From an uncultured virus (IMG/VR IMGVR_UViG_3300027832_000007) (Duplodnaviria; Heunggongvirae; Uroviricota; Caudoviricetes): a stretch of DNA of 61,775 nt. This document shows, piece by piece, positions 21,402 through 50,392 of the stretch. The notes beneath the pieces are model-generated. The model saw nothing but the letters and a program-made list of their open reading frames with translations. It ran no database searches and was not told where the DNA came from. The stretch lies in the IMG/VR virus record IMGVR_UViG_3300027832_000007. One strand, written 5' to 3'. The first letter of the stretch is position 1. Each line of letters starts with the position of its first letter. The position numbers and the translations under genes are program-made.

Positions 21402-24400
21402 TTACTCTAACATTTTATCAATATCATCAATCATATTATCAATATCATTATTAATTTTAATGTTTTTATCATAAACTTTAGTTTTCTCACCTTTATCTTT
21501 GTTGCTTGGCTTTACAGCCTCAATTAAGATATCAATAAATTTACTTTCGTATTTTTTGGTTCGTTTATTTAATTTAGCAGTTAAATTATTTTTCCTTTCA
21601 GTTAATTGTTTATCAATTCTTTTAATATTTTCAGATAATGTTGAACCGAAATCTAAGTCTTCACCACCAGATTCTGCGCCAGTACCACCAGCTTCTCCAC
21701 CTAATCCACCATCAGCACCCTCATCAGCACCCTCATCAGCAACCTCATCAGCACCCCCATCTTCAGCATCACCGAAATCTAAGTCTTCACCACCAGTACC
21801 ACCGCCACCAAATCCGCCACCAAATCCACCACCTAATCCGCCACCACCAGTTTCTCCACCACCACCAGCTTCTACACCACCAGCTTCCCCACCAGCACCA
21901 CCTTCTAAAGCAGCTTGGTAATCACCGTAAATTCTATCAACCGTATCAAACATACCAGTATGTTTAATTACATTAGCCGTATTAGCTAATTCAGCAGCAG
22001 CAGCTTTCTCCATTCTTTGTTCAAGTAAATCTTGTTTAATTTCATCATCAGACCAACCTAATATCTCTCTATGAGCACGAGTCCATGACATAGTACTAAA
22101 TCCAGTTCCAATATCGGATGTTGCATCTTTAAGTAATGAAACTTTAAGTTGTAAGTTTTCAATTTTAAGCATTTCAGCTTGTGTTGATGGATTATTTAAT
22201 GTAAGTGTGAAATTATCTAAATCATCCTCAAACCCTAAAATATATAAATGTATAATAGCAATCTTGTTAAGTTCTTGTAGCATAGATTGCTGTATTCTAT
22301 TTATTGTTCTAGAAAAACGAACGTCTTGTATCGCTAAATTTTTACCATCACCAGATGTCTCATCAAAACCTAAGAAAGGTTTAGGTACACGCAAAGCTGT
22401 AAATAAATTACTTCTTAAATATTCAATATCAGCAATTTGGTCTAAATTACTGTTTTTCAAGTAGTTACCAGCTTCTGTTGCAAATGTATGATAATTATGG
22501 TATAATTCATCACCATCTACGGTAATTGTACCAGTATCTTCTTTAACCTTTAACCATTCAATATTAACTATTTTATGATTATAGTTGGCTTCTTCAACAG
22601 ATTTATTAGACTTTTCAATATAATATCTCCAAGCTATTACGTTCTTATAACCTAACTCTTCAGCTGTTACTTTACACCAGTCTCTGTAATTCTTAAACCC
22701 ACGTTCTTTAATCATCTTATCTAGATGATTACGTGTAAATTCATTTAGGTTTGTTAGTGAGCTTCTAATGTCTTTATTTGAATCCGTAAACTCAGTCATG
22801 AAATCTTCATTTGAATTTAGTTCAACCAATGTCAAATCAGCTTTACCACAAAGTTTAAACATTTCAAAGAACATATTATAAAGTTTGTCACTAAATGTGA
22901 TTGTTTGTTTCTTACTAAATACTTTACGTCTGTATTCGTCAGATTCCCAGTTTTCTTTGGCTATCTTAGAAAAACTTTCTTTAAATTCATCAGTTGATTT
23001 AGCTTTACTAATGGCTTCACCTCTTAACTTAATAATCCCATATTTATTAAGATTATTATTAAATGTTTCATTAGATTTAATTCTAGAATTAATTGAATTT
23101 AATTTAGATTGTTCACCTCTAATTGATTTCTCATCTTCTGTTTGATTAGAGATGAACTTATTAATACCTTTAGTTATTTTACGTATGTTTTCTTTAGCCT
23201 TATCTGGAGTAGACCATAACTCATGCCTATGGTATTGATAATGGTCTCTTGAATTCATTAACGTTAAATTTTTAGGTACATTATTAAATCTATCGTTATC
23301 AACATGGTGAATAGTTTTCATCTTAGTTTTATAATAATCACCTTCAAATGTAAAATAATTTTCTTTATTTTTATCTTTCATAAAACTATTAACCATTCTA
23401 TGTGTGAACACCCATTCTTGTTTTAACGAATCCCATACTCTTTCATATTTTTTAGAATATTTCTTTTTTAGTATATATTCCTCATCTCTATAGAAAGGCA
23501 TTAACGAATCACCAATAACTAAATCTTGAGCTTCAACGAACCCTTTGGTTCTATGCACCCATTTATGGTCTGGTGTAGTTGTAATCGACTCACCATTATC
23601 CAATGTTATTTTCATAACCTCAGTATTTTTTCTAGTTTCACCAGCCCAAGTAATAACACCTGGTGCAAGTGCACCAGAAATTGGGTCACATGAATAAACC
23701 CAAAGGTTTCTATTACCATTATTCCATTCAGTTATTATTTCATTTAACTCTAATGTTCTACCATCTAATAATGGTATACGAGTATCTAATGCGATACAAG
23801 CACCAGGTAATGTATCGATAGGGTTAGGAGCATCTTCAGTTCTAACTGGAATGAAAAAATCTTGGTCGTTCGATAATTGGTTATAACGCAAATCAATTTG
23901 ACCAGTTTGTGGGTCAGTAATTGGCATACGTTTAAATCTATCAGCAATAGTATTAACATACTGTTCAACATCTGCATCATCAATATTTCCAACATAAATT
24001 TTATATACACGTCTCTCTGGTGCCCTAGTAACACGATATACAAGCATTGAATCCTCAGATAAAATAAGTTGTTTCCAAATACGTCTAGCTTTCTCTAATA
24101 CAGAATTATGGACAACGATACCATTTGCATAAAAATTATGATTATCATTTTCAACATATATATCGTATGTTTCGTGTTCACCACTTTCCTCAATTGATTT
24201 AATCGGTTCTAAAATAAAATCGTTAGTTAACCTATTACCAATTAAATCATATTTATTTTTTTGCCTTATTATTGGAACATTAACATTATTTAGATTAATT
24301 TTATCAACAACCAATAAATCACCTACTTTAAAATCTAGCGTATTTTTATAATCGAATTTATTTAATTCGGTATTATAATACATTATCTTATGTTCTTTAG

Positions 24401-25316
24401 ATGCGTCTATAAAATTATGTTTGGTACTAAGTTTATAAGTTTTTTTATTACCAGAATTAATAGTATCCAATACTTTCGACAATACTTTAACTTGATTTAT
24501 CTCATCAAATGAATAAACCATATCACCAATAACAATATCTTTTATCTCCTTATACCCCTCACTTGTCTCAACTCTAGAATTATATTTTAAACACGTACCA
24601 TAAGGTAAACGTCTATCATCACCTAATAAACGGAAATGAGCAATTTGCCAAGAATTAAATTCAACATCACGACCTCTCCAAAAGAATTTAACTTTACCAC
24701 TATCAGAACCTTCATCTATAGTAGTTTCTCGACCAGAAATCATATCAAATAATCCAAATTCTCTACGTTCCATCTCATAATTAGGCATCTGTTTACCACC
24801 TAATACACCTTGTGATTCATCTATATTTAAATATAAAAAATTATCACCATATTTACAAGTATTTCTTGTCCACATAGGTAAAGACGTGTGTAAATCTAAT
24901 CTATTGAAGAATAAATCCTCCAATATAGTTTTAACACGTTTACTATCAGAATAAATATTAATCATTCTACCACTATCATTAACTGTGGTTGATTCTTCCA
25001 TCATAACATCTAAAGCAGCCGCTATAATAGGATAAAATTCCATAGCCTCAAAATCAACATAAGAACCAATTCTAGTCGTTTCATAGTTAATAGATTGTTG
25101 GAATAAACCACTCTCTACCTTTTTCCATGTTTGACCTAAATATTTTTTTTGTTGTGCTTGTAATTTAGCAGTATCATACTCTTGTTTACTATTTGTTTTA
25201 AGTAATTCATTATCTCCTATGTTATATCTTTGAGACTGTTGTTTTTGAACTTTAATACCTTCTGGACTTACAACTTGTCCTAATCTTTGAAATAATGTTG
25301 AATTTTTATTTGACAT
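21402..25316 (-). CDS. gp20: portal protein (T4 gp20-like) with two inteins
   Basis: CKYGDNF, WQIAHFRL, YRVTRAPERRVYKIYVGNI, DFFIPVR, IDTLPG, ALRVPK, DVRFSRTINRIQ; about 692 aa after splicing. Confidence 0.95.
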   Translation of the reverse strand: MSNKNSTLFQRLGQVVSPEGIKVQKQQSQRYNIGDNELLKTNSKQEYDTAKLQAQQKKYLGQTWKKVESGLFQQSINYETTRIGSYVDFEAMEFYPIIAAALDVMMEESTTVNDSGRMINIYSDSKRVKTILEDLFFNRLDLHTSLPMWTRNTCKYGDNFLYLNIDESQGVLGGKQMPNYEMERREFGLFDMISGRETTIDEGSDSGKVKFFWRGRDVEFNSWQIAHFRLLGDDRRLPYGTCLKYNSRVETSEGYKEIKDIVIGDMVYSFDEINQVKVLSKVLDTINSGNKKTYKLSTKHNFIDASKEHKIMYYNTELNKFDYKNTLDFKVGDLLVVDKINLNNVNVPIIRQKNKYDLIGNRLTNDFILEPIKSIEESGEHETYDIYVENDNHNFYANGIVVHNSVLEKARRIWKQLILSEDSMLVYRVTRAPERRVYKIYVGNIDDADVEQYVNTIADRFKRMPITDPQTGQIDLRYNQLSNDQDFFIPVRTEDAPNPIDTLPGACIALDTRIPLLDGRTLELNEIITEWNNGNRNLWVYSCDPISGALAPGVITWAGETRKNTEVMKITLDNGESITTTPDHKWVHRTKGFVEAQDLVIGDSLMPFYRDEEYILKKKYSKKYERVWDSLKQEWVFTHRMVNSFMKDKNKENYFTFEGDYYKTKMKTIHHVDNDRFNNVPKNLTLMNSRDHYQYHRHELWSTPDKAKENIRKITKGINKFISNQTEDEKSIRGEQSKLNSINSRIKSNETFNNNLNKYGIIKLRGEAISKAKSTDEFKESFSKIAKENWESDEYRRKVFSKKQTITFSDKLYNMFFEMFKLCGKADLTLVELNSNEDFMTEFTDSNKDIRSSLTNLNEFTRNHLDKMIKERGFKNYRDWCKVTAEELGYKNVIAWRYYIEKSNKSVEEANYNHKIVNIEWLKVKEDTGTITVDGDELYHNYHTFATEAGNYLKNSNLDQIADIEYLRSNLFTALRVPKPFLGFDETSGDGKNLAIQDVRFSRTINRIQQSMLQELNKIAIIHLYILGFEDDLDNFTLTLNNPSTQAEMLKIENLQLKVSLLKDATSDIGTGFSTMSWTRAHREILGWSDDEIKQDLLEQRMEKAAAAELANTANVIKHTGMFDTVDRIYGDYQAALEGGAGGEAGGVEAGGGGETGGGGLGGGFGGGFGGGGTGGEDLDFGDAEDGGADEVADEGADEGADGGLGGEAGGTGAESGGEDLDFGSTLSENIKRIDKQLTERKNNLTAKLNKRTKKYESKFIDILIEAVKPSNKDKGEKTKVYDKNIKINNDIDNMIDDIDKMLE
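22452..23798 (-). mobile_element. intein (449 aa) with HNH endonuclease in the portal
   Basis: LPGA/CIALDTRIPLLDG, TTPDHKW, IHHVDNDRFNNVPKNL (HNH), ends YHTFATEAGNYLKN/S. Confidence 0.9.
24105..24593 (-). mobile_element. mini-intein (163 aa, no endonuclease) in the portal
   Basis: PYGT/CLKYNSRV ... TYDIYVENDNHNFYANGIVVHN/SVLE. Confidence 0.93.
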
Positions 25317-25634: not shown

Positions 25635-28600
25635 TTATTTTCTTCTTCCAAATAACCAAGCATACTCACCTTTTGGGTCTTGTATATTTTTATATGCCAA
25701 ATGATTTGGATTTATTTTAACTTCAGATTTATTAGTCTCTTTATTATAACTATTAGTAGTTGATGAAATTTGATTACCAGTAGCCCAACTATTTAATATT
25801 GCTTTGTTTTGTTTTTCTAATCTTTCCAAATTCTTAAATGAATGTTCCATTACCCAAAGACCCATACCCAATGACATAAGTAAATCATCGTGATATCCAT
25901 CCATATGGTCTGGTCTACCATTTTTAAATATAAATGTTTTCATTTCTGAAATCATTCTAGTTGAACGAATCTTAATACCATTTGTTCTTATTTGATATTC
26001 TAGATTTGAAATCATTGGTACACGAACATTTGTTGCGTGAAAACCTGGTATTTTACTACCTTTATCATAAGACGTTAACTCTCTTTGTCTAGCAGAAAGT
26101 ATTTTACCGTTATTACTATCATAATGTAAATATTTATAATCGAATTCTAATAATTTAAGTACCGTAGAAACACCCATACCACCAGTAACATCGACTACTG
26201 TATACGCTTTATATAGATTACCATACTCTTCAACAATTTGAGCTAATAAATCTGGTTGTATTTTACCTTGATACTCTAAAACTTCCTCCATTGTGGTGAA
26301 ATCTATAATAACGATAGTTGATGAATCCTCACTATCACCCCTAGATACATCACAATTATGGGTTGTTATATGGTGACACATAAAAGTATTAGTATCACAT
26401 TCAAAATTATATACATTCCCAGTGAACTTATTCTTATTTATTTTTTTAACTCTAAAATAAATATAATCTTTATTATCATCAAAATGACAAGAACTAATGA
26501 TTCGTTTATTCTTGGTATTAAAATCACCAATATCAAATTTATTTAACTTAATATCATCAGTTTTATAAATTAATTTTATTAAATCCAAACTGTCATGATT
26601 ACCTAAAGTTAAATTGTAGGTCTCGCTTTGTTGACATTCACGACCACAAATTATTGTAATTTTAGCATCTCGTAACTTATCTAAACATGAAACAACTCCC
26701 AATGAAAAAATAATATCTTGTACCGACTCCAATAATTCTAAATTGGTACTAACAAAACTTACCTTAGAATATTTCTTCCCGTTTTTCTGAGTTTTAACCC
26801 AACACCCATCACTATCAAAATACCCTCTAATTAATTCTTTTTTATTTTCATCAGATATAAACTTAACCCATTCTGATATTTTTTTACCATGTGAGTATTG
26901 TCCGAAATTTTCTAATATGAAATAATATAAAAATTTAGAATTAAACACTAGTTCAAAAGTACTACCTTTATCGATAAATGATGGTGAACTTTTAAATAAT
27001 CGTTTTATTATATCTTTACATTTCTCAATATAACCTTCATGTTTTTTATCAAAACATAACGATATTGCATATGAGTGTTTATTTTTATCTAATCCCCCAT
27101 CACCTAACCACATACCCATAAACCACCAAAAATCGTTCTCAAACAATGGTGACTCAAATTCAAATTCACATCTGACAGCATTATCTATCTTCCATTTATT
27201 ATTATAGCCACTTTTAATTGACTCTTTATAAATATTCGGCACCTTGACCCAATCCCCAATCTCAACCTCTTCTACCCTAGTATAATTAAAATCAAAATCC
27301 CAATACCTATCATTAAATTTATATTCATCATTATTTTTATCATAATTTCGTTTTAAATTAGATTTACTAATTAAAATTGGGTGTTCCTTAGTAAATGTTG
27401 TTGTTCTAAATGTATTATCCATTTGCATTTCAAACACATCTTCATCAACCACTTGGTAAATTTGTTTATTAATTATATTTACATAATTACCATCTTCACT
27501 TATTAACCTATCATTAATATCAACATCTTCAATATTTACCAATCCTTTATCGGTTAAGACTTTTTCATTCGGTGGTAAACATCCTAAAATATATTGGTGA
27601 CCCTCAATAGGTTCTTCCCATATCCAAGTCTCTTGCTCTAGACCATGCATATACTTAGGTTCTCTTACATTATTTTTATCTTGATATTCAATATACTCTT
27701 CATTAATAACGTTACCACCAGAACCAATAAATGACACATCTAATTCTTGTGCAATCATTTTTGAATCATTATTCATACCTAAACACATCTCTTCATACCA
27801 ACTCGATGTAGGTTTCCACCCATCACTTATTCGTTCTGAATATGTTTTAAATGTAAACTCAACCTCTTTCTCCAAAAGGTCCCCTTTAATCCATCTAAGG
27901 TCTTTATTATAACGTAAATCTTCAAACCATCTCATCTCAACAATGTTGAAATTATTCTTTTTATTTTTAGCTTGGTCATAAGTCTTATAATATAAAGAAT
28001 CCATACCATTAGGTGTTTGATGACCTAATATACCATTATAAATAACGGAATGACACCAAAAATCATTAGTTTCGGGTAATGAAACATCATATGTTTTATT
28101 TTTAAGTTTTTCTAATTTAGTTATTGGAACCCATTTTGAATCTTTAAAATTAATTTTATCAATTGAATATCTGGATAAATCAAGATTTAAAACATTAATA
28201 AAATAATCTATAAATTCATTAAAAATATTTACTGATAAATTAGCTGTTTTGTTTTTATTAGAAATTCTAATTTTATTAACTAGTAAACCAGTGTTAGATA
28301 ATTTTTTAACTAATTTATGTTCGTCTATAATATTTCTAATTATATTTTTACCGTTTGGTATTATTCTATATCCATTATTATATGATACTAATTTATTTTG
28401 GTCTCTTTTTATTTGTTTCCTATTAAATCTAAAACCAATGGTATCGTAATATTTATCCGCATCAATAGATGTCGATGAAAGTCTATAATATTGACTACTA
28501 ACTTTAACTTTTTTAGTTGGTGGTGTTATTTCTTCTGAATAATCAGTTAATATACCAAGATTTAAAAATAAAAACCTTATTTGTTGAATTAATTTTTTAG

Positions 28601-31301
28601 AGGATAAATTTATACCTACCCTACCTCTAATATTATCAGAATAACCATCACCATCCATAATACCTTGTAACATAGCAATAATATTTTCACGCCCCATTTC
28701 AAGTAAACGTCTAGGTATTAATTTATTTGGTGCTTTTAAGGTTAAATCAAAACCCAAATACTCTAACAAACTACCTAAATATTTAGATGAAATTTTATAG
28801 TGTAAATTATCGTGTGATGAATAATCAAACCCAGCATTAGATATGTATGTACCAACATCATCACCACATGATATCGTAATATCACAACCAACAATAATAC
28901 CATCAATATTTTTTGGTTTATAACAAGACCCTTCTGATAAATATAAACCAATTAGATAAGCTAAATCAGTATTTATTTTATCATAAATTATTTTTGGTTT
29001 ATTTTCTCTATTTGAAAACTCATAGGCAAAATCAATAGTATCGTTATTACCGAAAATATTAAACGAATGTTGTACGTTAACATAATCACCAATTTCTAAT
29101 TCACTAACCGTAAACCAATCATATTTGTTTTTTTTATTTGAATAAGACCACAATTTATGTGTTTCAGTCGACTCAAGTTCTGAATTAGTAGTTGTTAATT
29201 TTATAGTTTCTTGAAAACCATTATTAACAATTAAATTTGATTTCCTAGATATATTATTTCCTCTAATATTATATTCTTTAACATAATAACCTAAATTAGG
29301 TATATCTGGTTCATCATAATTAATAATGTCTTTCATTTGTTGTAAACCAGTATCAGTAAAAATAAAAGTATCTTCAGTAACACAGGATATAAGTGTTGCT
29401 CGACCCCCAGTATTATGACTTATAATACCGTTTGAAATAAATGAATTTGTTTCTGGTACATGTAAATCATAAGTATAATCTTCTGACTCAGTTATAGAAA
29501 TAATTTCATCAATATAAAATAATTCTTGTCTTTTTAATTGTTCAGTTAATGATAATAAAAAAGCATTATTTGGTAACAAGGATAATAAACGGTTTAATGA
29601 TTCGACACTTAATCTATTTAAGTCTGATTTCCAAAATCTTTCTAAAAATCTAACTTTAGTTTTAACTATATTATTTATTTGTAAAACTTCTAAAATTTCT
29701 TTATTACTTACATTAACAAATCTTGAGTTTTGTTTCTTATTTAATAAAAATTGTTTATTATTTTGTTTTCTATCTAATCTAAAACCAATTTCGTCATAAA
29801 ATTTAATTGCATAATTTGAATATATTTTTAAGTTGTAAATTTTACAAATATGTTTTTTATTTTTTAATATTGATGATTTAGATGTTTTTTGTTCTTCATA
29901 TTTAACATGTGATATAATACCAAAATTAAACAATAAAGTTTGTAGAGTTTGAATTAGTTTTTTAGATGTACTTGAATATTTAATATCTTTTATAGTACTC
30001 ATACCATCACCATCGAACATACCTTGTAAAAATGCTTTAATAACATCTTTAGGCATCTTTAATAACGCTAAAGGTATTTCTTTATCCCTAGCGTTATGTT
30101 TATCCAATCCAAACATTTTAAACCATTCAATTAATTCGGTTGAGTGAAATTGATAATGGAAGTCATCAACTTTTTTAAATGCGTTACCTAAACAAGCTTT
30201 ATCTGTTAATAGAAAATTTGTTATATAATCGTCAATATTTGTGATGGTAATACCTCTTGAATTAAAATTACCCTCAGCTACGAATAAACCTAATAAATAA
30301 GAAAAATCTAAATTGTCACCAAGCTTTTTAGGTATTGTGATGTTTTTATTATTTTTGGTTTTATTGAAAACAAAATTTACTTCACTATTATCACTAAAAT
30401 AATTTTGACCATATTGAATTATTGGTTTGTCACCAATTTTTAATTCGTTCATACGAACCCAATTTTCAGTTCCATTCCTATCAATTAAGATAGGATGTTT
30501 CCAACTCCCCTCTAATTCAACACCTAATTTAGTTTTTATTTTAAATGTTTGACCATATTCACTAACAAAAGTTTGAGTTGCATTAACAATATCACCATCT
30601 TTATTACAAACTTTATGTGGTAACTCCAAATCAGTGAAACCTATTTTATCTTTTTCAGAAACTAATTCATCAAGTTGAATTAAACCATTTTCAGTTAAAA
30701 TTAACGAATCTTTTGTTAAGCATCCTAAAGCTGTAAGTGCGGCACCAAAAACTTCAGCACCATTATCAATATATGCAGCCTCATCCATGATAAGAAATGT
30801 AGGTGTAAAACCCCTCAAAGCATCTTTAGATGTAGCAACCGCTTTAACACGACTACCATTAGGTAATTTTATTTCTTTTTTTGAATCTGTAATAAAAATT
30901 GATTTGGCGTCCTTTTTAGCATCACCACAATACTCACTTCCCCATACCCATCTAGGTAATTGACCAAGAAAATCTTTAATCTTAGCTAAGAATTCAAATG
31001 CAAGTTCTTGTTTATTGGCAATAATAAGTATATTCTCTGGGTTATCCCTATCACCAAAACCTACTTTGATTGACATATATGCAGCGGTTGTTGTTGATAC
31101 ACCAGCTTGACGTGGTTTTGTTACAATATTAAATCTATGTTTATCATATGCTTTAATTATTTCTTTTTGTCTAGGAAATAATTTAAAAGGTACGAAACCT
31201 TCTTGCGTTTTATCGAACGTTTCTAAATATGTCTCAATAGCATGAACAGAATCAGTAAGACAATGAGCATACTCTTGAAATATTTCTTGTGTTGTTAACA
31301 T
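25635..31301 (-). CDS. gp17: terminase large subunit (gp17-like) with three inteins
   Basis: LFPRQ, KPRQAGVST, RGFTPTFLIMDEAA, ISTPNG after splicing, GCDVSRGD, HDDLLMS; about 586 aa mature. Confidence 0.95.
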   Translation of the reverse strand: MLTTQEIFQEYAHCLTDSVHAIETYLETFDKTQEGFVPFKLFPRQKEIIKAYDKHRFNIVTKPRQAGVSTTTAAYMSIKVGFGDRDNPENILIIANKQELAFEFLAKIKDFLGQLPRWVWGSEYCGDAKKDAKSIFITDSKKEIKLPNGSRVKAVATSKDALRGFTPTFLIMDEAAYIDNGAEVFGAALTALGCLTKDSLILTENGLIQLDELVSEKDKIGFTDLELPHKVCNKDGDIVNATQTFVSEYGQTFKIKTKLGVELEGSWKHPILIDRNGTENWVRMNELKIGDKPIIQYGQNYFSDNSEVNFVFNKTKNNKNITIPKKLGDNLDFSYLLGLFVAEGNFNSRGITITNIDDYITNFLLTDKACLGNAFKKVDDFHYQFHSTELIEWFKMFGLDKHNARDKEIPLALLKMPKDVIKAFLQGMFDGDGMSTIKDIKYSSTSKKLIQTLQTLLFNFGIISHVKYEEQKTSKSSILKNKKHICKIYNLKIYSNYAIKFYDEIGFRLDRKQNNKQFLLNKKQNSRFVNVSNKEILEVLQINNIVKTKVRFLERFWKSDLNRLSVESLNRLLSLLPNNAFLLSLTEQLKRQELFYIDEIISITESEDYTYDLHVPETNSFISNGIISHNTGGRATLISCVTEDTFIFTDTGLQQMKDIINYDEPDIPNLGYYVKEYNIRGNNISRKSNLIVNNGFQETIKLTTTNSELESTETHKLWSYSNKKNKYDWFTVSELEIGDYVNVQHSFNIFGNNDTIDFAYEFSNRENKPKIIYDKINTDLAYLIGLYLSEGSCYKPKNIDGIIVGCDITISCGDDVGTYISNAGFDYSSHDNLHYKISSKYLGSLLEYLGFDLTLKAPNKLIPRRLLEMGRENIIAMLQGIMDGDGYSDNIRGRVGINLSSKKLIQQIRFLFLNLGILTDYSEEITPPTKKVKVSSQYYRLSSTSIDADKYYDTIGFRFNRKQIKRDQNKLVSYNNGYRIIPNGKNIIRNIIDEHKLVKKLSNTGLLVNKIRISNKNKTANLSVNIFNEFIDYFINVLNLDLSRYSIDKINFKDSKWVPITKLEKLKNKTYDVSLPETNDFWCHSVIYNGILGHQTPNGMDSLYYKTYDQAKNKKNNFNIVEMRWFEDLRYNKDLRWIKGDLLEKEVEFTFKTYSERISDGWKPTSSWYEEMCLGMNNDSKMIAQELDVSFIGSGGNVINEEYIEYQDKNNVREPKYMHGLEQETWIWEEPIEGHQYILGCLPPNEKVLTDKGLVNIEDVDINDRLISEDGNYVNIINKQIYQVVDEDVFEMQMDNTFRTTTFTKEHPILISKSNLKRNYDKNNDEYKFNDRYWDFDFNYTRVEEVEIGDWVKVPNIYKESIKSGYNNKWKIDNAVRCEFEFESPLFENDFWWFMGMWLGDGGLDKNKHSYAISLCFDKKHEGYIEKCKDIIKRLFKSSPSFIDKGSTFELVFNSKFLYYFILENFGQYSHGKKISEWVKFISDENKKELIRGYFDSDGCWVKTQKNGKKYSKVSFVSTNLELLESVQDIIFSLGVVSCLDKLRDAKITIICGRECQQSETYNLTLGNHDSLDLIKLIYKTDDIKLNKFDIGDFNTKNKRIISSCHFDDNKDYIYFRVKKINKNKFTGNVYNFECDTNTFMCHHITTHNCDVSRGDSEDSSTIVIIDFTTMEEVLEYQGKIQPDLLAQIVEEYGNLYKAYTVVDVTGGMGVSTVLKLLEFDYKYLHYDSNNGKILSARQRELTSYDKGSKIPGFHATNVRVPMISNLEYQIRTNGIKIRSTRMISEMKTFIFKNGRPDHMDGYHDDLLMSLGMGLWVMEHSFKNLERLEKQNKAILNSWATGNQISSTTNSYNKETNKSEVKINPNHLAYKNIQDPKGEYAWLFGRRK
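26355..27581 (-). mobile_element. terminase intein 3 (409 aa), LAGLIDADG
   Basis: ILG/CLPPNEKV ... GMWLGDG ... IRGYFDSDG ... HITTHN/CDVS. Confidence 0.93.
28017..29384 (-). mobile_element. terminase intein 2 (456 aa), LAGLIDADG, C-terminal Gln
   Basis: LIS/CVTEDTFI ... LIGLYLSEG ... LQGIMDGDG ... NGILGHQ/TPNG. Confidence 0.92.
29412..30722 (-). mobile_element. terminase intein 1 (437 aa), LAGLIDADG
   Basis: ALG/CLTKDSLIL ... LLGLFVAEG ... FLQGMFDGDG ... NGIISHN/T. Confidence 0.93.
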
Positions 31302-44316: not shown

Positions 44317-45343
44317 ATTATGAAATCAATTAAAAACACTAAAGTTACTATAACCCCTTACGCTAGAGTAGAAAAATTATCTGAATCTAAAATAAAAATT
44401 ACAAACATTTTAAGAGAGGAATTATTTATTTATAACGGTAAAAATAAGTTATCTGAGGAATCATTATTTTTGGTTAATAATTCACATTATATCGAAAATG
44501 TTTTAGGTATAAAAAAAGGGTTAAATGAAAATTATTCATTAAGTTTAAGAAAACAAATAATAACCGAACAATTAATTTTTGAAAACTTGTTAGGCTCTAT
44601 CAATAAATATATTGGAAATGTTGTTGGCAAGGGAAAAGAAAAAGCAATGGAGGTGGTTGATAGTATAGCAAATCTAAAGGATGTCGCTAAATTATTTAAA
44701 GACCTTTTATTAGACTCAGAATTAATGGTTAATGCTATTCTATCTATTAAAAAATTATTGTTAGAGACAATTAATAAAATAAAACAAGATGTTATAAAAA
44801 TTGTAGCGCTTATTAATGATAAAATTTCTGGATTTGCCGATAAATTTGAAAAATTGATGTTACATATTGAAAAAGTAGCAATATCAGTTTCAACAGAAAT
44901 TGGATGGAAAGGGTTTTTAATGATATTGGGTTTTTTGACTTTACTATCGTACCTTCAAGAAACCGTTTTTGGTAAAATAATAAGTGGTGGTTTAAACTTC
45001 ATTCAACAAAATACAAACATAATTGCTGGTATTTCTGGTGTTTTTAATACGTTTAAAGAATTAAAAGAATTAGCTTTATCAACTTTTGAAATAGGACCTA
45101 TTTTAACATGGTTTACTGGAGTTGTCGCTTCAGCAACAAAAGAAATTTTCGATTCAGCATTAATTGGTTTTCAGTTAATTAATATTATTGGCGTTATTTT
45201 AACACCAGTTATTAAATCAGTTTCTTTATCCAAAAAACTTAGAAAAACTTAATCTTGGTAAAACAACACAATTAACTAATATAGTTACAATAATAAGAAA
45301 ATGGGGGAAAATACACCCAGAGATATATTTATAAATTATGAAA
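44273..45343 (+). repeat. about 53-bp direct repeat (44273-44325 / 45291-45343) flanking the 310-aa gene
   Basis: taataagaaaatgggggaaaatacacccagagatatatttata(g/a)attatgaaa occurs twice. Confidence 0.9.
44320..45252 (+). CDS. putative membrane-associated internal head protein
   Basis: Leader shared with 46085; hydrophobic helices GFLMILGFLTLLSYL and LIGFQLINIIGVILT. Confidence 0.55.
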   Translation: MKSIKNTKVTITPYARVEKLSESKIKITNILREELFIYNGKNKLSEESLFLVNNSHYIENVLGIKKGLNENYSLSLRKQIITEQLIFENLLGSINKYIGNVVGKGKEKAMEVVDSIANLKDVAKLFKDLLLDSELMVNAILSIKKLLLETINKIKQDVIKIVALINDKISGFADKFEKLMLHIEKVAISVSTEIGWKGFLMILGFLTLLSYLQETVFGKIISGGLNFIQQNTNIIAGISGVFNTFKELKELALSTFEIGPILTWFTGVVASATKEIFDSALIGFQLINIIGVILTPVIKSVSLSKKLRKT

Positions 45344-46084: not shown

Positions 46085-46684
46085 ATGAAATCAATTAAAA
46101 ACACTAAGGTTACTATGACCCCTTACGCTAGAGTAGAAAAATTAGAAGAAGGATTAAAACAATTTTTAGTTAAAGAAAAATTATCTGAATCTAAAATTAA
46201 AATTAAAAACATTTTAAGAGAAAGTTCAGAATCTCCATCTAGAGATGAACAAATGAGAACTTATTTTAAAGATAGAAATCTTAACTTTGATAATTACCAT
46301 ATAATTATTAATGATAATGACGGTATAGTGGAAGGTATTATACCTGATTCTTTTATAGAAAAATATAAAAGTATTAAAAGTGCATTAGCTAAAGCAATTG
46401 TTATGTGTACATTTGCTGCTGGTGCACTAACATCATGTACAAAAGAACCGACTTTTGTTTATGAATATTCTTACCGAACTGAAGGTTCTATTGCGAGTGA
46501 CTTAAAAAGAGCACCAGATGGTAGTTATGTATCAAAAGGTAAGTGGTTCCTAAAAACTAGTGAACTTTTATCAGCTGATGATTTGGCGGCTAAAGAAAAA
46601 GAATGTTACTATAAAACTACTACACCAGATAACCCAGTAGTATCTGATACTATTGTGTTAATTAATGATAAAGCTTGGAAATAA
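46085..46684 (+). CDS. LRE-leader protein with an internal lipoprotein-like signal
   Basis: Leader shared with 44320; internal KAIVMCTFAAGALTSCTKE. Confidence 0.55.
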   Translation: MKSIKNTKVTMTPYARVEKLEEGLKQFLVKEKLSESKIKIKNILRESSESPSRDEQMRTYFKDRNLNFDNYHIIINDNDGIVEGIIPDSFIEKYKSIKSALAKAIVMCTFAAGALTSCTKEPTFVYEYSYRTEGSIASDLKRAPDGSYVSKGKWFLKTSELLSADDLAAKEKECYYKTTTPDNPVVSDTIVLINDKAWK

Positions 46685-46701: not shown

Positions 46702-47193
46702 TTAACCCTCCTTTATTACTTCACCTAGATATTCATAACTAAAACAAATTCGTTTGTTATCTACATAATGATTCTTAAACAAGTTCTCATGTGTAACATC
46801 AGTTCTTAATTTTCTATTTTTACTAGTTGCCCTCCATAGTCTTGAATTTTGCATGTACATACCCATTCTTGGATGTGCTGTTCTTGAAAAAAACCTATGA
46901 CCTTCATCTAAATGAATTTGAGCGATAGCGTTAATAAATCTAACACCAATTCCTAATCCTTGGAAATCTGGGAGTATAACTACCCTATGTCCTCGCCATG
47001 CATTCTTAAGTGAACCACTAGGCATTGTCATTGTTGCACAGAAACCAATTACTTGTCCTTCCCAAACAGCAACATAACATCTAGATGCTTTACTAATTGT
47101 TCCACTTAAATAGTGATGGTCCTTAAAAGTTCCCCAACTATCATTTGTTGTGCGATATATCTTGATATTGATTTCTGGTCGGACAAAAAAAAA
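46702..47193 (-). CDS. Mom-like GNAT acetyltransferase domain, reached by a -1 frameshift from the ABC ATPase
   Basis: Frame open from the T9 run: VRPEINIKIY...FKDHHYL...VIGFCA...HRVVILPDFQGLGIG (acetyl-CoA motif)...RTAHP. Confidence 0.8.
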   Translation of the reverse strand, partial: FFFVRPEINIKIYRTTNDSWGTFKDHHYLSGTISKASRCYVAVWEGQVIGFCATMTMPSGSLKNAWRGHRVVILPDFQGLGIGVRFINAIAQIHLDEGHRFFSRTAHPRMGMYMQNSRLWRATSKNRKLRTDVTHENLFKNHYVDNKRICFSYEYLGEVIKEG

Positions 47194-47795
47194 CCGTCTA
47201 GCAGTTCACCTGTATCCGTATTTAAAACCCAATCTGGCTCAAGCCAATCCACAATATCACTATGACAAGTGGAGATTACTATATTCTCTAAGTTATTCTT
47301 CCTAACATACCTAGACATTGACACAGAGGCAGCCTTAGCGACATTTCTATCGACTACTGAAGTAAACTCATCTATTACACTATTTGATTTGATTCTACGA
47401 GCTAAATCAGCTCTAAATTTTTCCCCATTAGATAATACATCATATGGTTTGTACCAAGAAGGTACAGTATTCAATCCAACTGAACCTAATTTATTTATTG
47501 CTTCATCTGGATTTTCGAAATGTGAAACTATTGATTTGTTTGCTTCCCATATTAATTTCTCTTCAGTACCAAAATGTTTTAACATTGTTGATTTACCACT
47601 TCCAGAAGAACCAACTATTACACCGATACTAAATTTAGATGGTATGTTTTTTGGTAGTTTCCAAGGATAAAATTTTGATGTACCATCAAAAATACAGTCA
47701 AATGCTTTTTCACTAGCTGTAATAAATTCGTCTCTATCTACTGATGAAATTAAAGGTTTTTCTTCTTTTTCTAATTTTTCAATAACTTTATTCAT
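47106..47795 (-). CDS. stand-alone ABC-type ATPase (probable start MNKVIEK)
   Basis: GSSGSGKST Walker A, LSNGEKFR signature, IDEFTSVVDR, TCHSDI..WLEPDW; late promoter at 47812. Confidence 0.88.
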   Translation of the reverse strand: MNKVIEKLEKEEKPLISSVDRDEFITASEKAFDCIFDGTSKFYPWKLPKNIPSKFSIGVIVGSSGSGKSTMLKHFGTEEKLIWEANKSIVSHFENPDEAINKLGSVGLNTVPSWYKPYDVLSNGEKFRADLARRIKSNSVIDEFTSVVDRNVAKAASVSMSRYVRKNNLENIVISTCHSDIVDWLEPDWVLNTDTGELLDGFFLSDQKSISRYIAQQMIVGELLRTITI

Positions 47796-47848: not shown

Positions 47849-47881
47849 AATGACTAATGTACTTAAAGCACATTAGTCATT
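47849..47881. terminator. 12-bp perfect hairpin, likely a terminator
   Basis: AATGACTAATGT-acttaaagc-ACATTAGTCATT. Confidence 0.6.
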
Positions 47882-48422: not shown

Positions 48423-48929
48423 TTAACATTTTTTATCAGCAATAGTTGATGCAGCATAAGCATCTGGCTTAACCTTAAACTCATAACCCATACCTAAAAT
48501 ATATCCAACAGTTTGTTGTAGAGCTTTATTTGACTCATGAACTGGGTCTTTATTTATGTCAGCATGAATTTCCAACGGTAATTCATATAAATCTAATAGT
48601 GGTGCTATATCATACGCAACTTCTATAGATTTGCTTACTTCATAAACCATTCTCTCATTAACTAACTCTTTATCTGTTTTCTTGAACGTATTAAAATATG
48701 TCGAAGATATTACCAAACCACCACGACCAACAATTACGCCACCTAAATCTTGTGTCGTTGTAATAAGTATAACAGTAGCAAACTTATATGTAAATTTACT
48801 AACTTTTTGTGAATCTGTACCTACACACACTTTTAATTTATATCCTTTGTTTAATTCTTCCTCAAATATGTTTTCTAAATATTCTTCTAAAGTACCATTA
48901 ATTCTTTTTTCTTTTCTTTTCCAAATCAT
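48423..48929 (-). CDS. RNase H-like YkuK family protein
   Basis: VCVGTDSQ, FATVI, RMVYEVSKS, EIHADIN, KPDAYAASTIAD. Confidence 0.85.
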   Translation of the reverse strand: MIWKRKEKRINGTLEEYLENIFEEELNKGYKLKVCVGTDSQKVSKFTYKFATVILITTTQDLGGVIVGRGGLVISSTYFNTFKKTDKELVNERMVYEVSKSIEVAYDIAPLLDLYELPLEIHADINKDPVHESNKALQQTVGYILGMGYEFKVKPDAYAASTIADKKC

Positions 48930-48994: not shown

Positions 48995-50392
48995 TTAAAA
49001 TTGCGTTTGTGGTAACAGTTCTTTTAATCTTTTATAATTTTCACCACCTATTTGTTCTTCTTTGATACCTAATCTAAGTAGTGAACCACCATTGCTCTTA
49101 TCTAAATATTTAATTTCTTCTGGAAAATACAAAATTGGGTTATCTGAAAGGTTTAAGAAAATAAGTTTTTGCAGTTTACCAATCTCTTTTGGTATTTGTT
49201 TTATTTTATTATTACTCAAAACCAACATCTCCAAATTAATTAAATCACCAATTGATTCATGAAGTTCAACCATATTAGCCGAACATATGATTAGTTGGTC
49301 CAAATTATTAAATTTACTTATGTTTGGTAATTTTGGAATCTCTCTATTCATAAATCTTATCGTTGGTGTTTCAATATCAATCATATCAAATAAACTATCC
49401 GCAAAACCAAATTTAACTAAATAATCTAAATAAAGATTCTGTTCAATACCTTTTTTGTTAGCCTTTGCATTTACCATTAATGTTTCATGAAAATAATTAT
49501 GAATACCTTCACTCTCAAGTAAAACATTTTCAAATATACTAACATTACTACCATTTTTTCTATCTTTTAATTGATTACTCTCAAAATGTACTTGATATAA
49601 TTCATCAGACTTTCCATCAAAAAATAAATTATTTATTATTATGTAAATATCAGATTTATCACCATTTGGTTTTCTATATTCAGTATATCTTTTAAACATT
49701 CCATTTCCACTCTTAGCCGTACACCAGTTAGTAAATTTATCAAAGGCAATACTAGCATCGACAGATTTAGGTATAAATAAAGTATATTTTCTATCCTTTA
49801 CTGGAATTTCAGCCTCACCAGATTCAACAAATTTATTTAAAACTCTCTCTAAACTTGAGGGTTCCTTTTCAATAAAAGGGTCAACAACATCAAATAATTG
49901 AGATAATGATTTATATTGGTTAATATCAGTAGGGTCTTCAATGTGTTTTAAAGCGTAACTAGCTTTACATAAATTTTTAAATTTTTTCTTTCGCTTATTA
50001 CTTTCAAATAAAATTAAATAAGAATTAGCTTGAGGTAAATCCTCCAATACTAAACGAATCGCTATAGGTATTGTTTCTGAATCCTTACATAAACGAGAGA
50101 ATAGATTTAACATCCACTGAACATAAATTTTATTATTTGTAGGGTCAGCTATTATCATATCAGTAAAAACAAATGAACAAACACTAACCTTTAAAGATAA
50201 TTTACCTTTTTTATTTAAAATCTTAGATACAATACCTAAAACCTCACCATCTCTAACAATTAACTCAGATAACCAACCCTCTGCTGCTAACTCACTCATT
50301 TTATCGGTAACTCCATCAAGTGAACCATCACATTCAAAAACGTCAAATTTTTCAGTCAAAAACGTTATTCTATCTTTAATTATATCCTTCAT
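48995..50392 (-). CDS. leucine-rich-repeat protein with an N-terminal T-x-W-C domain
   Basis: TNWCTA, YQVHFESNQLKD; C-terminal LxxLxLxxNxIxxIPxEIGxL repeats. Confidence 0.75.
   Translation of the reverse strand: MKDIIKDRITFLTEKFDVFECDGSLDGVTDKMSELAAEGWLSELIVRDGEVLGIVSKILNKKGKLSLKVSVCSFVFTDMIIADPTNNKIYVQWMLNLFSRLCKDSETIPIAIRLVLEDLPQANSYLILFESNKRKKKFKNLCKASYALKHIEDPTDINQYKSLSQLFDVVDPFIEKEPSSLERVLNKFVESGEAEIPVKDRKYTLFIPKSVDASIAFDKFTNWCTAKSGNGMFKRYTEYRKPNGDKSDIYIIINNLFFDGKSDELYQVHFESNQLKDRKNGSNVSIFENVLLESEGIHNYFHETLMVNAKANKKGIEQNLYLDYLVKFGFADSLFDMIDIETPTIRFMNREIPKLPNISKFNNLDQLIICSANMVELHESIGDLINLEMLVLSNNKIKQIPKEIGKLQKLIFLNLSDNPILYFPEEIKYLDKSNGGSLLRLGIKEEQIGGENYKRLKELLPQTQF

Follow-up and report, generated by a model that had tools for sequence, protein, structure and literature searches.

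A conserved frame break at a nine-T run between ABC-type ATPase and GNAT acetyltransferase domains of a phage gene is probably a recoding site

An uncultured tailed phage from a freshwater metagenome carries a gene in which an ABC-type ATPase and a GNAT acetyltransferase domain are separated by a frame break at a run of nine T residues. The gene resides in a stretch of DNA of 61,775 nucleotides (IMG/VR record IMGVR_UViG_3300027832_000007), hereafter called the window. Comparative data make it likely that the run is a site of programmed recoding. Standard decoding would produce an ABC-type ATPase of 229 amino acids that ends in a conserved tail of 26 residues. A one-base slip at T9 would produce an ATPase–GNAT fusion of ∼362 amino acids that reads ...DGFFFVRPE... 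across the joint, with a layout identical to that of single-ORF relatives. The slip could occur if RNA polymerase adds one U to the U9 stretch, or if the ribosome slips by −1 on U_UUU_UUU. The relevant features are the following.

47849 to 47881, minus strand: terminator-like hairpin, upstream of the ATPase gene and after the preceding 76-amino-acid ORF
47106 to 47795, minus strand: 0-frame ORF for the 229-amino-acid ABC-type ATPase (short product), with ATG at 47795 and stop codon at 47108-47106
47206 to 47208, minus strand: TGA that closes the −1 frame upstream and, with the 0-frame stop at 47108-47106, bounds the shift stretch
47185 to 47193, minus strand: T9 run, the putative slip site, in 0-frame codons 201-204 (GGT TTT TTT TTG)
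46702 to 47184, minus strand: complete GNAT acetyltransferase domain in the −1 frame (VRPEINIKIY...HHYL...QGLGIG...), with stop codon at 46704-46702
47106 to 47184, minus strand: dual-coding overlap, in which the 0-frame tail LSDQKSISRYIAQQMIVGELLRTITI and its stop codon lie over the first 26 GNAT codons
46691 to 46716, minus strand: terminator-like hairpin where the transcription unit ends; it overlaps the stop codon of the GNAT frame

The minus-strand letters at the run are GAC GGT TTT TTT TTG TCC (A9 at 47185-47193 on the plus strand), and on inspection the letters and coordinates of the original prediction are correct. An in-phase heptamer, T_TTT_TTT at 47193-47187, is present in the 0-frame phase at the frame junction. 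The −1 frame is open from 47205, where it reads FFFVRPEINIKIYRTTNDSWGTFKDHHYLSG..., and continues through an annotated ORF of 109 amino acids to the stop codon at 46704-46702. It thus joins the ATPase to the ORF carrying QGLGIG, as had been proposed. The annotated ORF (47031-46702) opens with an ATG at 47031 and contains QGLGIG, but alone it is missing the first 54 residues of the GNAT domain, HHYL included, which bears out the claim that a complete enzyme requires a −1 shift at U9. The last 26 residues of the 0-frame product are encoded in the frame overlapping the GNAT start. The sequence GFFFVRPE of the fused relatives is obtained whether the RNA gains one U or the ribosome slips by −1, and the trans-frame peptide (...DGFFFVRPEINIK) is identical under polymerase slippage and ribosomal shifting.

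The window gene belongs to a family of ABC ATPase–GNAT fusions (PHROG phrog_11143, 357 positions), as established by an ordered profile match and by the ABC and GNAT motifs. The ATPase part matches the profile at 36-194 (E = 3.2e-61) and the GNAT part at 200-352 (E = 4.2e-40), directly after the ATPase match. This pattern is far beyond chance, since a single profile matches both parts in succession. Among Pfam models, ABC_tran matches the ATPase part with 25.3 bits (cut-off 25), and Acetyltransf_7 (33.5 bits, cut-off 27) and Acetyltransf_1 (32.4 bits) match the GNAT part, both above their cut-offs; NCBIfam gave only weak, sub-threshold matches to ABC and AAC(6') models. The ATPase has a Walker A motif (G62-T70), a signature motif (L121-E125), a Walker B motif (D142-E143), and an H-loop (H178). 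All 20 relatives compared share residues G62...K68, L121, S122, G124, E125, D142, E143, and H178, which the window protein also has. The Q/RxxGxG acyl-CoA motif of the GNAT part is QGLGIG. Structure models of the ATPase and GNAT parts are confident (pLDDT 86.3 and 83.6, respectively). Fold searches with these models returned generic ABC transporter ATPase subunits only (E ∼1e-7) and generic GNAT enzymes only (E = 2e-5); neither search gave a hint of the substrate, and the GNAT matches are not specific to nucleic-acid enzymes.

The family is large, with 7632 proteins at E ≤ 0.001 among 8000 candidates scored. When longer relatives of the GNAT part were sought, 324 proteins were found at E ≤ 0.001, and nearly all of the 120 listed have 340-375 amino acids. 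The closest fused relatives read ...GELL(D/H)GFFFVRPEI... across the joint, so that a single ORF would result here from T10, and slipping by −1 on T9 or adding one U to the RNA gives the same protein. Gene callers in several phages cut the gene in two, naming one piece “ABC transporter” and the other, truncated piece “hypothetical protein” or “GNAT.” The gene of Tenacibaculum phage pT24 is in a single frame with an in-frame TGA inside the GNAT domain where relatives have Gly (L003:1636-1638), and it is annotated as two “ABC transporter” CDSs. One fused relative of 711 amino acids (P0010) carries an intein, with Hint and LAGLIDADG homing endonuclease domains, at residues ∼60-353 in the Walker A region of the ATPase. 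Another locus has a second, GNAT-only copy ∼100 bases downstream of the fused gene (L082:2667-3158), with 49% identity to residues 204-359 of the fused protein P0003.

Conservation of the break was examined in two sets of contigs: 80 viral contigs gathered with an alignment of fused proteins, and 80 metagenome contigs gathered with only the N-terminal half of the window protein, a query that is blind to the joint. Junctions were classified in 164 sequences by using tblastn with a fused relative followed by junction extraction. Eighty-nine are in a single frame, 71 are broken by −1 at the joint, and four are partial; these fused-to-split ratios are not population estimates because the queries were biased (fused proteins for viral contigs, the N-terminal half of the window protein for metagenomes). 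No +1 break was found at the joint in the 164 sequences. Thirty-seven close relatives (66-94% identity in the N-terminal half) are broken by −1 at the same codon, and their run is T9 in all except one, which has T8 followed by C (L093). Only two close relatives have T10 and a single ORF (L004 and L005). Flanking synonymous sites vary freely among the close T9 loci, and in some relatives a −1 stop codon is located directly before the run. The same joint is broken by −1 in 33 distant relatives. Conservation of the broken frame in homologs had been proposed as a check, and it is borne out by the 37 close and 33 distant relatives.

When residues 1-200 were used for a protein search at lengths admitting both forms, the picture was the same: among the best 120 clusters (74-100% identity), 119 are short forms, 114 of them with exactly 229 amino acids, and one is fused. 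One short-form cluster (among P0123-P0240) ends in ...GFFFCPPRNQN, as expected if the run were T9 plus two T's and the third frame were read. In two further studies (X5 record 4 and X6 record 7; an estuary study from 2022 and a lake study from 2020), contigs span the T9 run with no gaps and no differences, although minority T10 alleles and transcripts are not visible in this comparison, since the four runs compared consist of contigs rather than reads. No RNA run was among those listed for this stretch. Contigs of run X8 end at 47193 and restart at 47206, a gap that carries no weight at a depth of 3-5. On a tree, fused or T10 forms are scattered tips beside T9 lineages (P0009 by L105, P0008 by L080/L081, and L004 near the window), and there is one small fused subclade (L005, P0005, P0011). 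The length of the run changes, and T9 persists. To judge from these sequences, the break is conserved rather than an error.

An intact GNAT frame of 154-161 codons is found in all 27 complete broken loci (26 relatives and the window). Over 351 pairs, the ATPase half has a median dN/dS of 0.125 and the GNAT half one of 0.178; pS is ∼0.63, and synonymous sites are near saturation. For the GNAT halves of the window and locus L084, dN is 0.037 and dS is 0.743. These values indicate that the GNAT frame is under purifying selection. The run is uninterrupted in 28 of 28 distinct sequences; elsewhere in the broken-locus genes, TTC accounts for 89 of 437 Phe codons and GGT for 396 of 603 Gly codons.

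The overlap itself has a distinctive signature. Among pairs with the same residue, the frequency of synonymous differences is 0.122 in the 27 overlap codons, compared to 0.44-0.46 elsewhere in the gene. This is the lowest value among 311 intervals of equal size, for which the lowest that does not overlap this region is 0.353 and the median is 0.448. Both frames therefore appear to be read. The same region in 72 fused relatives is only mildly lower than the rest of the gene (0.47 versus 0.61). The consensus of the short-form tail in 118 clusters is GFFLSDQKSxSKYIAQTMIVGECLKTITI. Part of its conservation is forced, since a one-base offset turns the conserved GNAT motif WGMFKDHHYL into GECLKTITI, but the loss of synonymous change goes beyond this forced part. 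Synonymous diversity is already reduced in the interval starting six codons upstream of the run. A GGTGA located 12 nt before the run was considered as a Shine–Dalgarno (SD)-like signal and rejected. This element is not counted because it encodes conserved G-E residues and because synonymous diversity is normal at least 12 codons upstream of the run.

The signals at the joint differ among relatives. Every run of A or T at this position contains an in-phase X_XXX_XXX heptamer. Six classes of signal are seen in the 33 distant relatives: an exact in-phase A7 heptamer is present in 12 loci, A9 from codon position 1 in eight, A9 from codon position 3 in three, T9 from codon position 1 in eight, and G5 and C5 in one locus each. 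A hairpin begins 7 nt downstream of the heptamer in the A7 class, with stabilities of −23.4 kcal/mol for L141 (z = −3.99) and −18.3 kcal/mol for L159 (z = −3.04). The consensus hairpin has 13 pairs with no compensatory changes. The A7 heptamer and its hairpin are arranged as in classical sites of ribosomal −1 shifting. Hairpins are weak or absent in the A9 groups and in the group with T9 from codon position 1. The G5 locus, in phage TR-TP1, is broken by −1 without a full heptamer. Three temperate phages (Streptococcus 315.4, Lactococcus P335, and Streptococcus MismyG) have a common −1 break, CAG GTT TTT CRA TWY CCC CAC, at which no full slippery heptamer is present; their genes have a ParB_N gene upstream and ASCH and terminase genes downstream.

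The window has two of the features expected of a −1 frameshift site, namely the heptamer and a conserved break followed by purifying selection downstream. The third feature, a stimulatory structure 5-9 nt downstream, was not found: the T9 clade has an alifold energy of −5.5 kcal/mol and no covarying pairs after the run, and the fold of the window's own sequence after T9 has z = +0.59. A ribosomal shift in the T9 clade would thus proceed without the usual stimulator, because no conserved downstream structure is present. The feature expected for transcriptional slippage, an uninterrupted run of about nine A or T residues at the junction, is present as T9, and nine-base runs recur in four further classes of phase and letter. 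Slippage of bacterial RNA polymerase is efficient on nine A's or T's, and U_UUU_UUU is a weak −1 shift site in Escherichia coli (PMC5009743). We therefore lean slightly to transcriptional slippage in the window, because nine-base runs recur in any phase and because U_UUU_UUU is a poor shift site. On these sequence features, polymerase slippage has about an even chance of being the mechanism, and ribosomal −1 frameshifting a chance a little below that; both may contribute.

Several other explanations for the broken frame have been weighed against programmed recoding. Homopolymers are error-prone, and a sequencing or assembly error could have turned a true T10 run, and with it an ordinary single ORF, into the T9 of the window. 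Close relatives L004 and L005 and some clusters (P0003-P0011) are of the T10 type or fused, and the fused protein P0009 is nearly identical to the T9 locus L105. However, T9 occurs in 36 loci from many samples, the short form is found in 119 of the best 120 clusters across four data sources, and contigs of two independent studies reproduce T9 for the window's own sequence. Suppression of synonymous change precisely over the overlap is also not expected from an error, and we regard this explanation as extremely improbable. Phase variation at the DNA level, with T9 as the OFF state and T10 as the ON state, would restrict the GNAT domain to a T10 subpopulation that arises by replication slippage. 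At a phase-variable locus, the ON and OFF run lengths should both be common, but fused forms account for one of 120 clusters and two of 39 close loci, and the consensus is T9 nearly everywhere. It is true that fused or T10 forms are scattered tips among T9 lineages, that runs of 8, 9, or 10 residues are all found, and that the tail of one cluster suggests 11. Nevertheless, a GNAT frame that is as constrained as the ATPase would be hard to keep if it were expressed only rarely, selection also acts on the 0-frame tail, and the relatives with A7 and a hairpin point to recoding rather than mutation. Phase variation is unlikely for these reasons.

Decay of the gene, by a frameshift mutation that killed the fusion and left only a working ATPase remnant, conflicts with the absence of any stop codon or indel in 27 complete GNAT frames despite saturated synonymous divergence, and with a dN/dS of 0.18. 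The two ORFs called by annotators in several phages and the in-frame TGA inside the GNAT domain of phage pT24 would be in keeping with decay, to which we nevertheless give almost no weight. Lastly, the two domains could be separate proteins, with GNAT translated alone from an internal start such as the ATG at 47031 that opens the annotated 109-amino-acid ORF. This start would cut 54 residues, HHYL among them, from the front of the fold, yet the stretch from the run to this ATG is conserved as protein. Furthermore, the −1 frame holds no ATG, GTG, or TTG from its upstream stop codon to the run, and some relatives have a −1 stop directly before the run. Independent translation of the GNAT domain is very unlikely.

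Programmed recoding, which we favor, raises the question of what the two products do. The acetyltransferase had originally been described as Mom-like. This description stands for the GNAT superfamily fold, which is common to both proteins, but not for membership in the Mom family. The Pfam Mom model (PF25680) gave no match to the window protein at E values up to 1; as a control, it matched the Mom protein of phage Mu at 2.4e-75 (253 bits). BLASTP versus Mu Mom aligned 11 residues only (E = 0.12), and hhalign gave a probability of 0.6%. None of these three comparisons shows a sequence relationship, and the GNAT domain is not assigned to the Mom family. Mu Mom and the window gene are alike in encoding GNAT-superfamily proteins of phages whose expression is, or in the window gene would be, tightly limited. 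They differ in that Mom has no ATPase domain and is controlled by Com rather than by recoding.

The pairing of ABC and GNAT domains has been predicted to form a DNA-base acylation system (PMC7824862, section 3.4.7, which cites Iyer et al. 2013, NAR 41:7635, for the prediction). This predicted system is the same protein family as the window gene, and the accession given in that section (QAX98348.1) is a fused homolog in Aeromonas phage AsFcp_2. The passage on the ABC–GNAT system mentions neither a frame break nor two products. DNA-base acylation is thus a predicted activity of the family. The enzyme may acylate a nucleic-acid base or another macromolecule, with ATP used to engage the substrate.

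A possible arrangement of the two products was suggested by a model of their complex with ATP and Mg, in which the relative P0003 served as the long form, the window protein served as the short form, and no alignment was used. The model scored 0.85 and the best of three controls scored 0.00; the pass mark is reached by 51 of 78 solved complexes and by 2 of 108 mismatched pairs, and because ABC dimers have already been solved, resemblance to known structures may account for part of the pass. Contact agreement among runs is at least 92%, and the partner pLDDT is at least 87. The modeled interface is the usual sandwich of Walker A against the signature motif. Tail residues 218-229 are placed against residues 208-217 of the partner GNAT domain and neighboring parts, and from this model we put forward the tail–GNAT contact as a hypothesis. 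The short and long products would pair as an ATP-sandwich ABC dimer, the short-form tail would rest against the single GNAT domain in the dimer, and the slip frequency would set the stoichiometry of the two forms. The original suggestion of a shift that controls how much ATPase is made relative to fusion fits both the dual-coding signal and the modeled complex.

Fused relatives carry a different candidate signal at the joint. The site in prfB, which encodes RF2, promotes a +1 shift and consists of an SD-like element, a 3-nt spacer, and CUU before a slowly read codon. An SD-like hexamer, a 3-nt spacer (one codon), and CTT or GTT are present in frame at the joint in 52 of 81 distinct single-frame loci. 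The hexamer is AGGGGG in 32 of these 52 loci; CTT is used in 47 and GTT in five. The codon that follows is mostly CGG (17) or AGG (12). Elsewhere in the fused genes, AGG accounts for 16% of Arg codons and CTT for 18% of Leu codons. In 79 of 80 fused loci, the 21 codons preceding HHYL are open in the +1 frame, as are 34% of positions elsewhere in the same genes. By analogy, this cassette looks like an RF2-type +1 signal, with an SD-like element, three nucleotides, and then CTT at the joint. The relatives differ from prfB in that the next codon is CGG or AGG rather than a stop, and in that a shift would truncate the protein instead of completing it. A +1 shift in the fused relatives would yield a short form whose tail comes from the same alternative frame. 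The cassette is absent from the window itself.

These patterns can be combined into a broader proposal, which we advance tentatively and rate as somewhat less than an even bet. The ABC–GNAT family could be an obligate two-product system, with a long ATPase–GNAT protein and a short ATPase, its tail encoded by the alternative frame of the first GNAT codons, in every lineage. Only the default product would differ between lineages: split genes would use a −1 event (at T9, A9, or A7 with a hairpin) to make the long form, and fused genes would use an RF2-like +1 shift at the same joint to make the short form. The products would form an asymmetric ABC dimer with a single GNAT domain and a docked short-form tail, and the slip frequency would set the dose of a nucleic-acid-acylating enzyme.

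The window has a G+C content of 28.5% and encodes a major head protein, a portal, a large terminase, PhoH, and a Lon-like protease. Relatives reside on contigs of up to 372 kb, which makes this a jumbo phage. A megablast comparison of the region with phage records gave no match. The region contains four terminator-like hairpins, compared to 0.4 expected, and the gene is flanked by them on both sides. A scan of the region for sigma-70-like promoters was at chance level (12 found, 13.5 expected). The four temperate phages examined have a ParB_N gene directly upstream of the ABC–GNAT gene and terminase genes following it, whereas the gene in the window has no such neighbors. No ParB_N match was found in the nearest record (G001), a 40-kb fragment judged to be 12% complete, so that this negative does not extend to the whole phage.

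Several other ORFs in the window are unusual. Upstream of the ATPase gene on the same strand, positions 48995-50392 (minus strand) encode a 465-amino-acid phage protein with C-terminal leucine-rich repeats, and beside it positions 48423-48929 (minus strand) encode a 168-amino-acid RNaseH_like protein (PF04308). The large terminase ORF (25635-31301, minus strand) has 1888 amino acids; its two ends match terminases, and residues 1394-1587 match an endonuclease family. The portal ORF (21402-25316, minus strand) has 1304 amino acids. Insertions, in the form of inteins or homing endonucleases, seem to be present in both. Over their first 20-30 residues (MKSIKNTKVT.TPYARVEKL...SESKIKI.NILRE), two plus-strand ORFs, 44320-45252 and 46085-46684, are near-identical; the remainder diverges, as in paralogs with a common N-terminal module.

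To our knowledge, programmed recoding in phages beyond the tail-assembly chaperones is known from few genes only. The putative recoding described here involves an enzyme family with thousands of members, and because gene callers annotate the gene in pieces, a candidate nucleic-acid-modifying enzyme escapes notice. Should the two products indeed pair as a defined mixed dimer, this would provide a direct handle on the action of a predicted DNA-modification enzyme. Because the same domain joint appears to be recoded by at least three kinds of signal, the family would also be a natural system in which to compare RNA polymerase slippage with −1 and +1 shifting. Literature searches, including the relevant parts of PMC5009743 and PMC10885494, gave no description of ABC–GNAT recoding.

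Two known systems are particularly close to the proposed arrangement. For mxiE of Shigella, transcriptional slippage leads to an extended product (PMC5009743), and the slip there extends the protein into an overlapping frame, as it would in the window gene. The two cases differ in that mxiE encodes a regulator in a bacterial secretion system, without a second enzymatic domain or a family-wide alternation of signals. The slip run of mxiE, like that of the window, consists of nine T's. The E. coli dnaX recoding site consists of a heptamer and a hairpin. The tau and gamma products of dnaX arise in E. coli by a −1 ribosomal shift at A_AAA_AAG and in Thermus thermophilus by RNA polymerase slippage at a nine-base run (PMC5009743). 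The dnaX and ABC–GNAT gene families are unrelated. In the window gene, unlike dnaX, the short product would be the default and the slip would add a whole catalytic domain; the out-of-frame tail of the short form has 26 residues and appears to be under selection. Nevertheless, both genes would give long and short ATPase-containing products with a common N-terminus, and both have, at the same place in the gene, a structureless nine-base run of A or T in some lineages and a heptamer with a hairpin in others.
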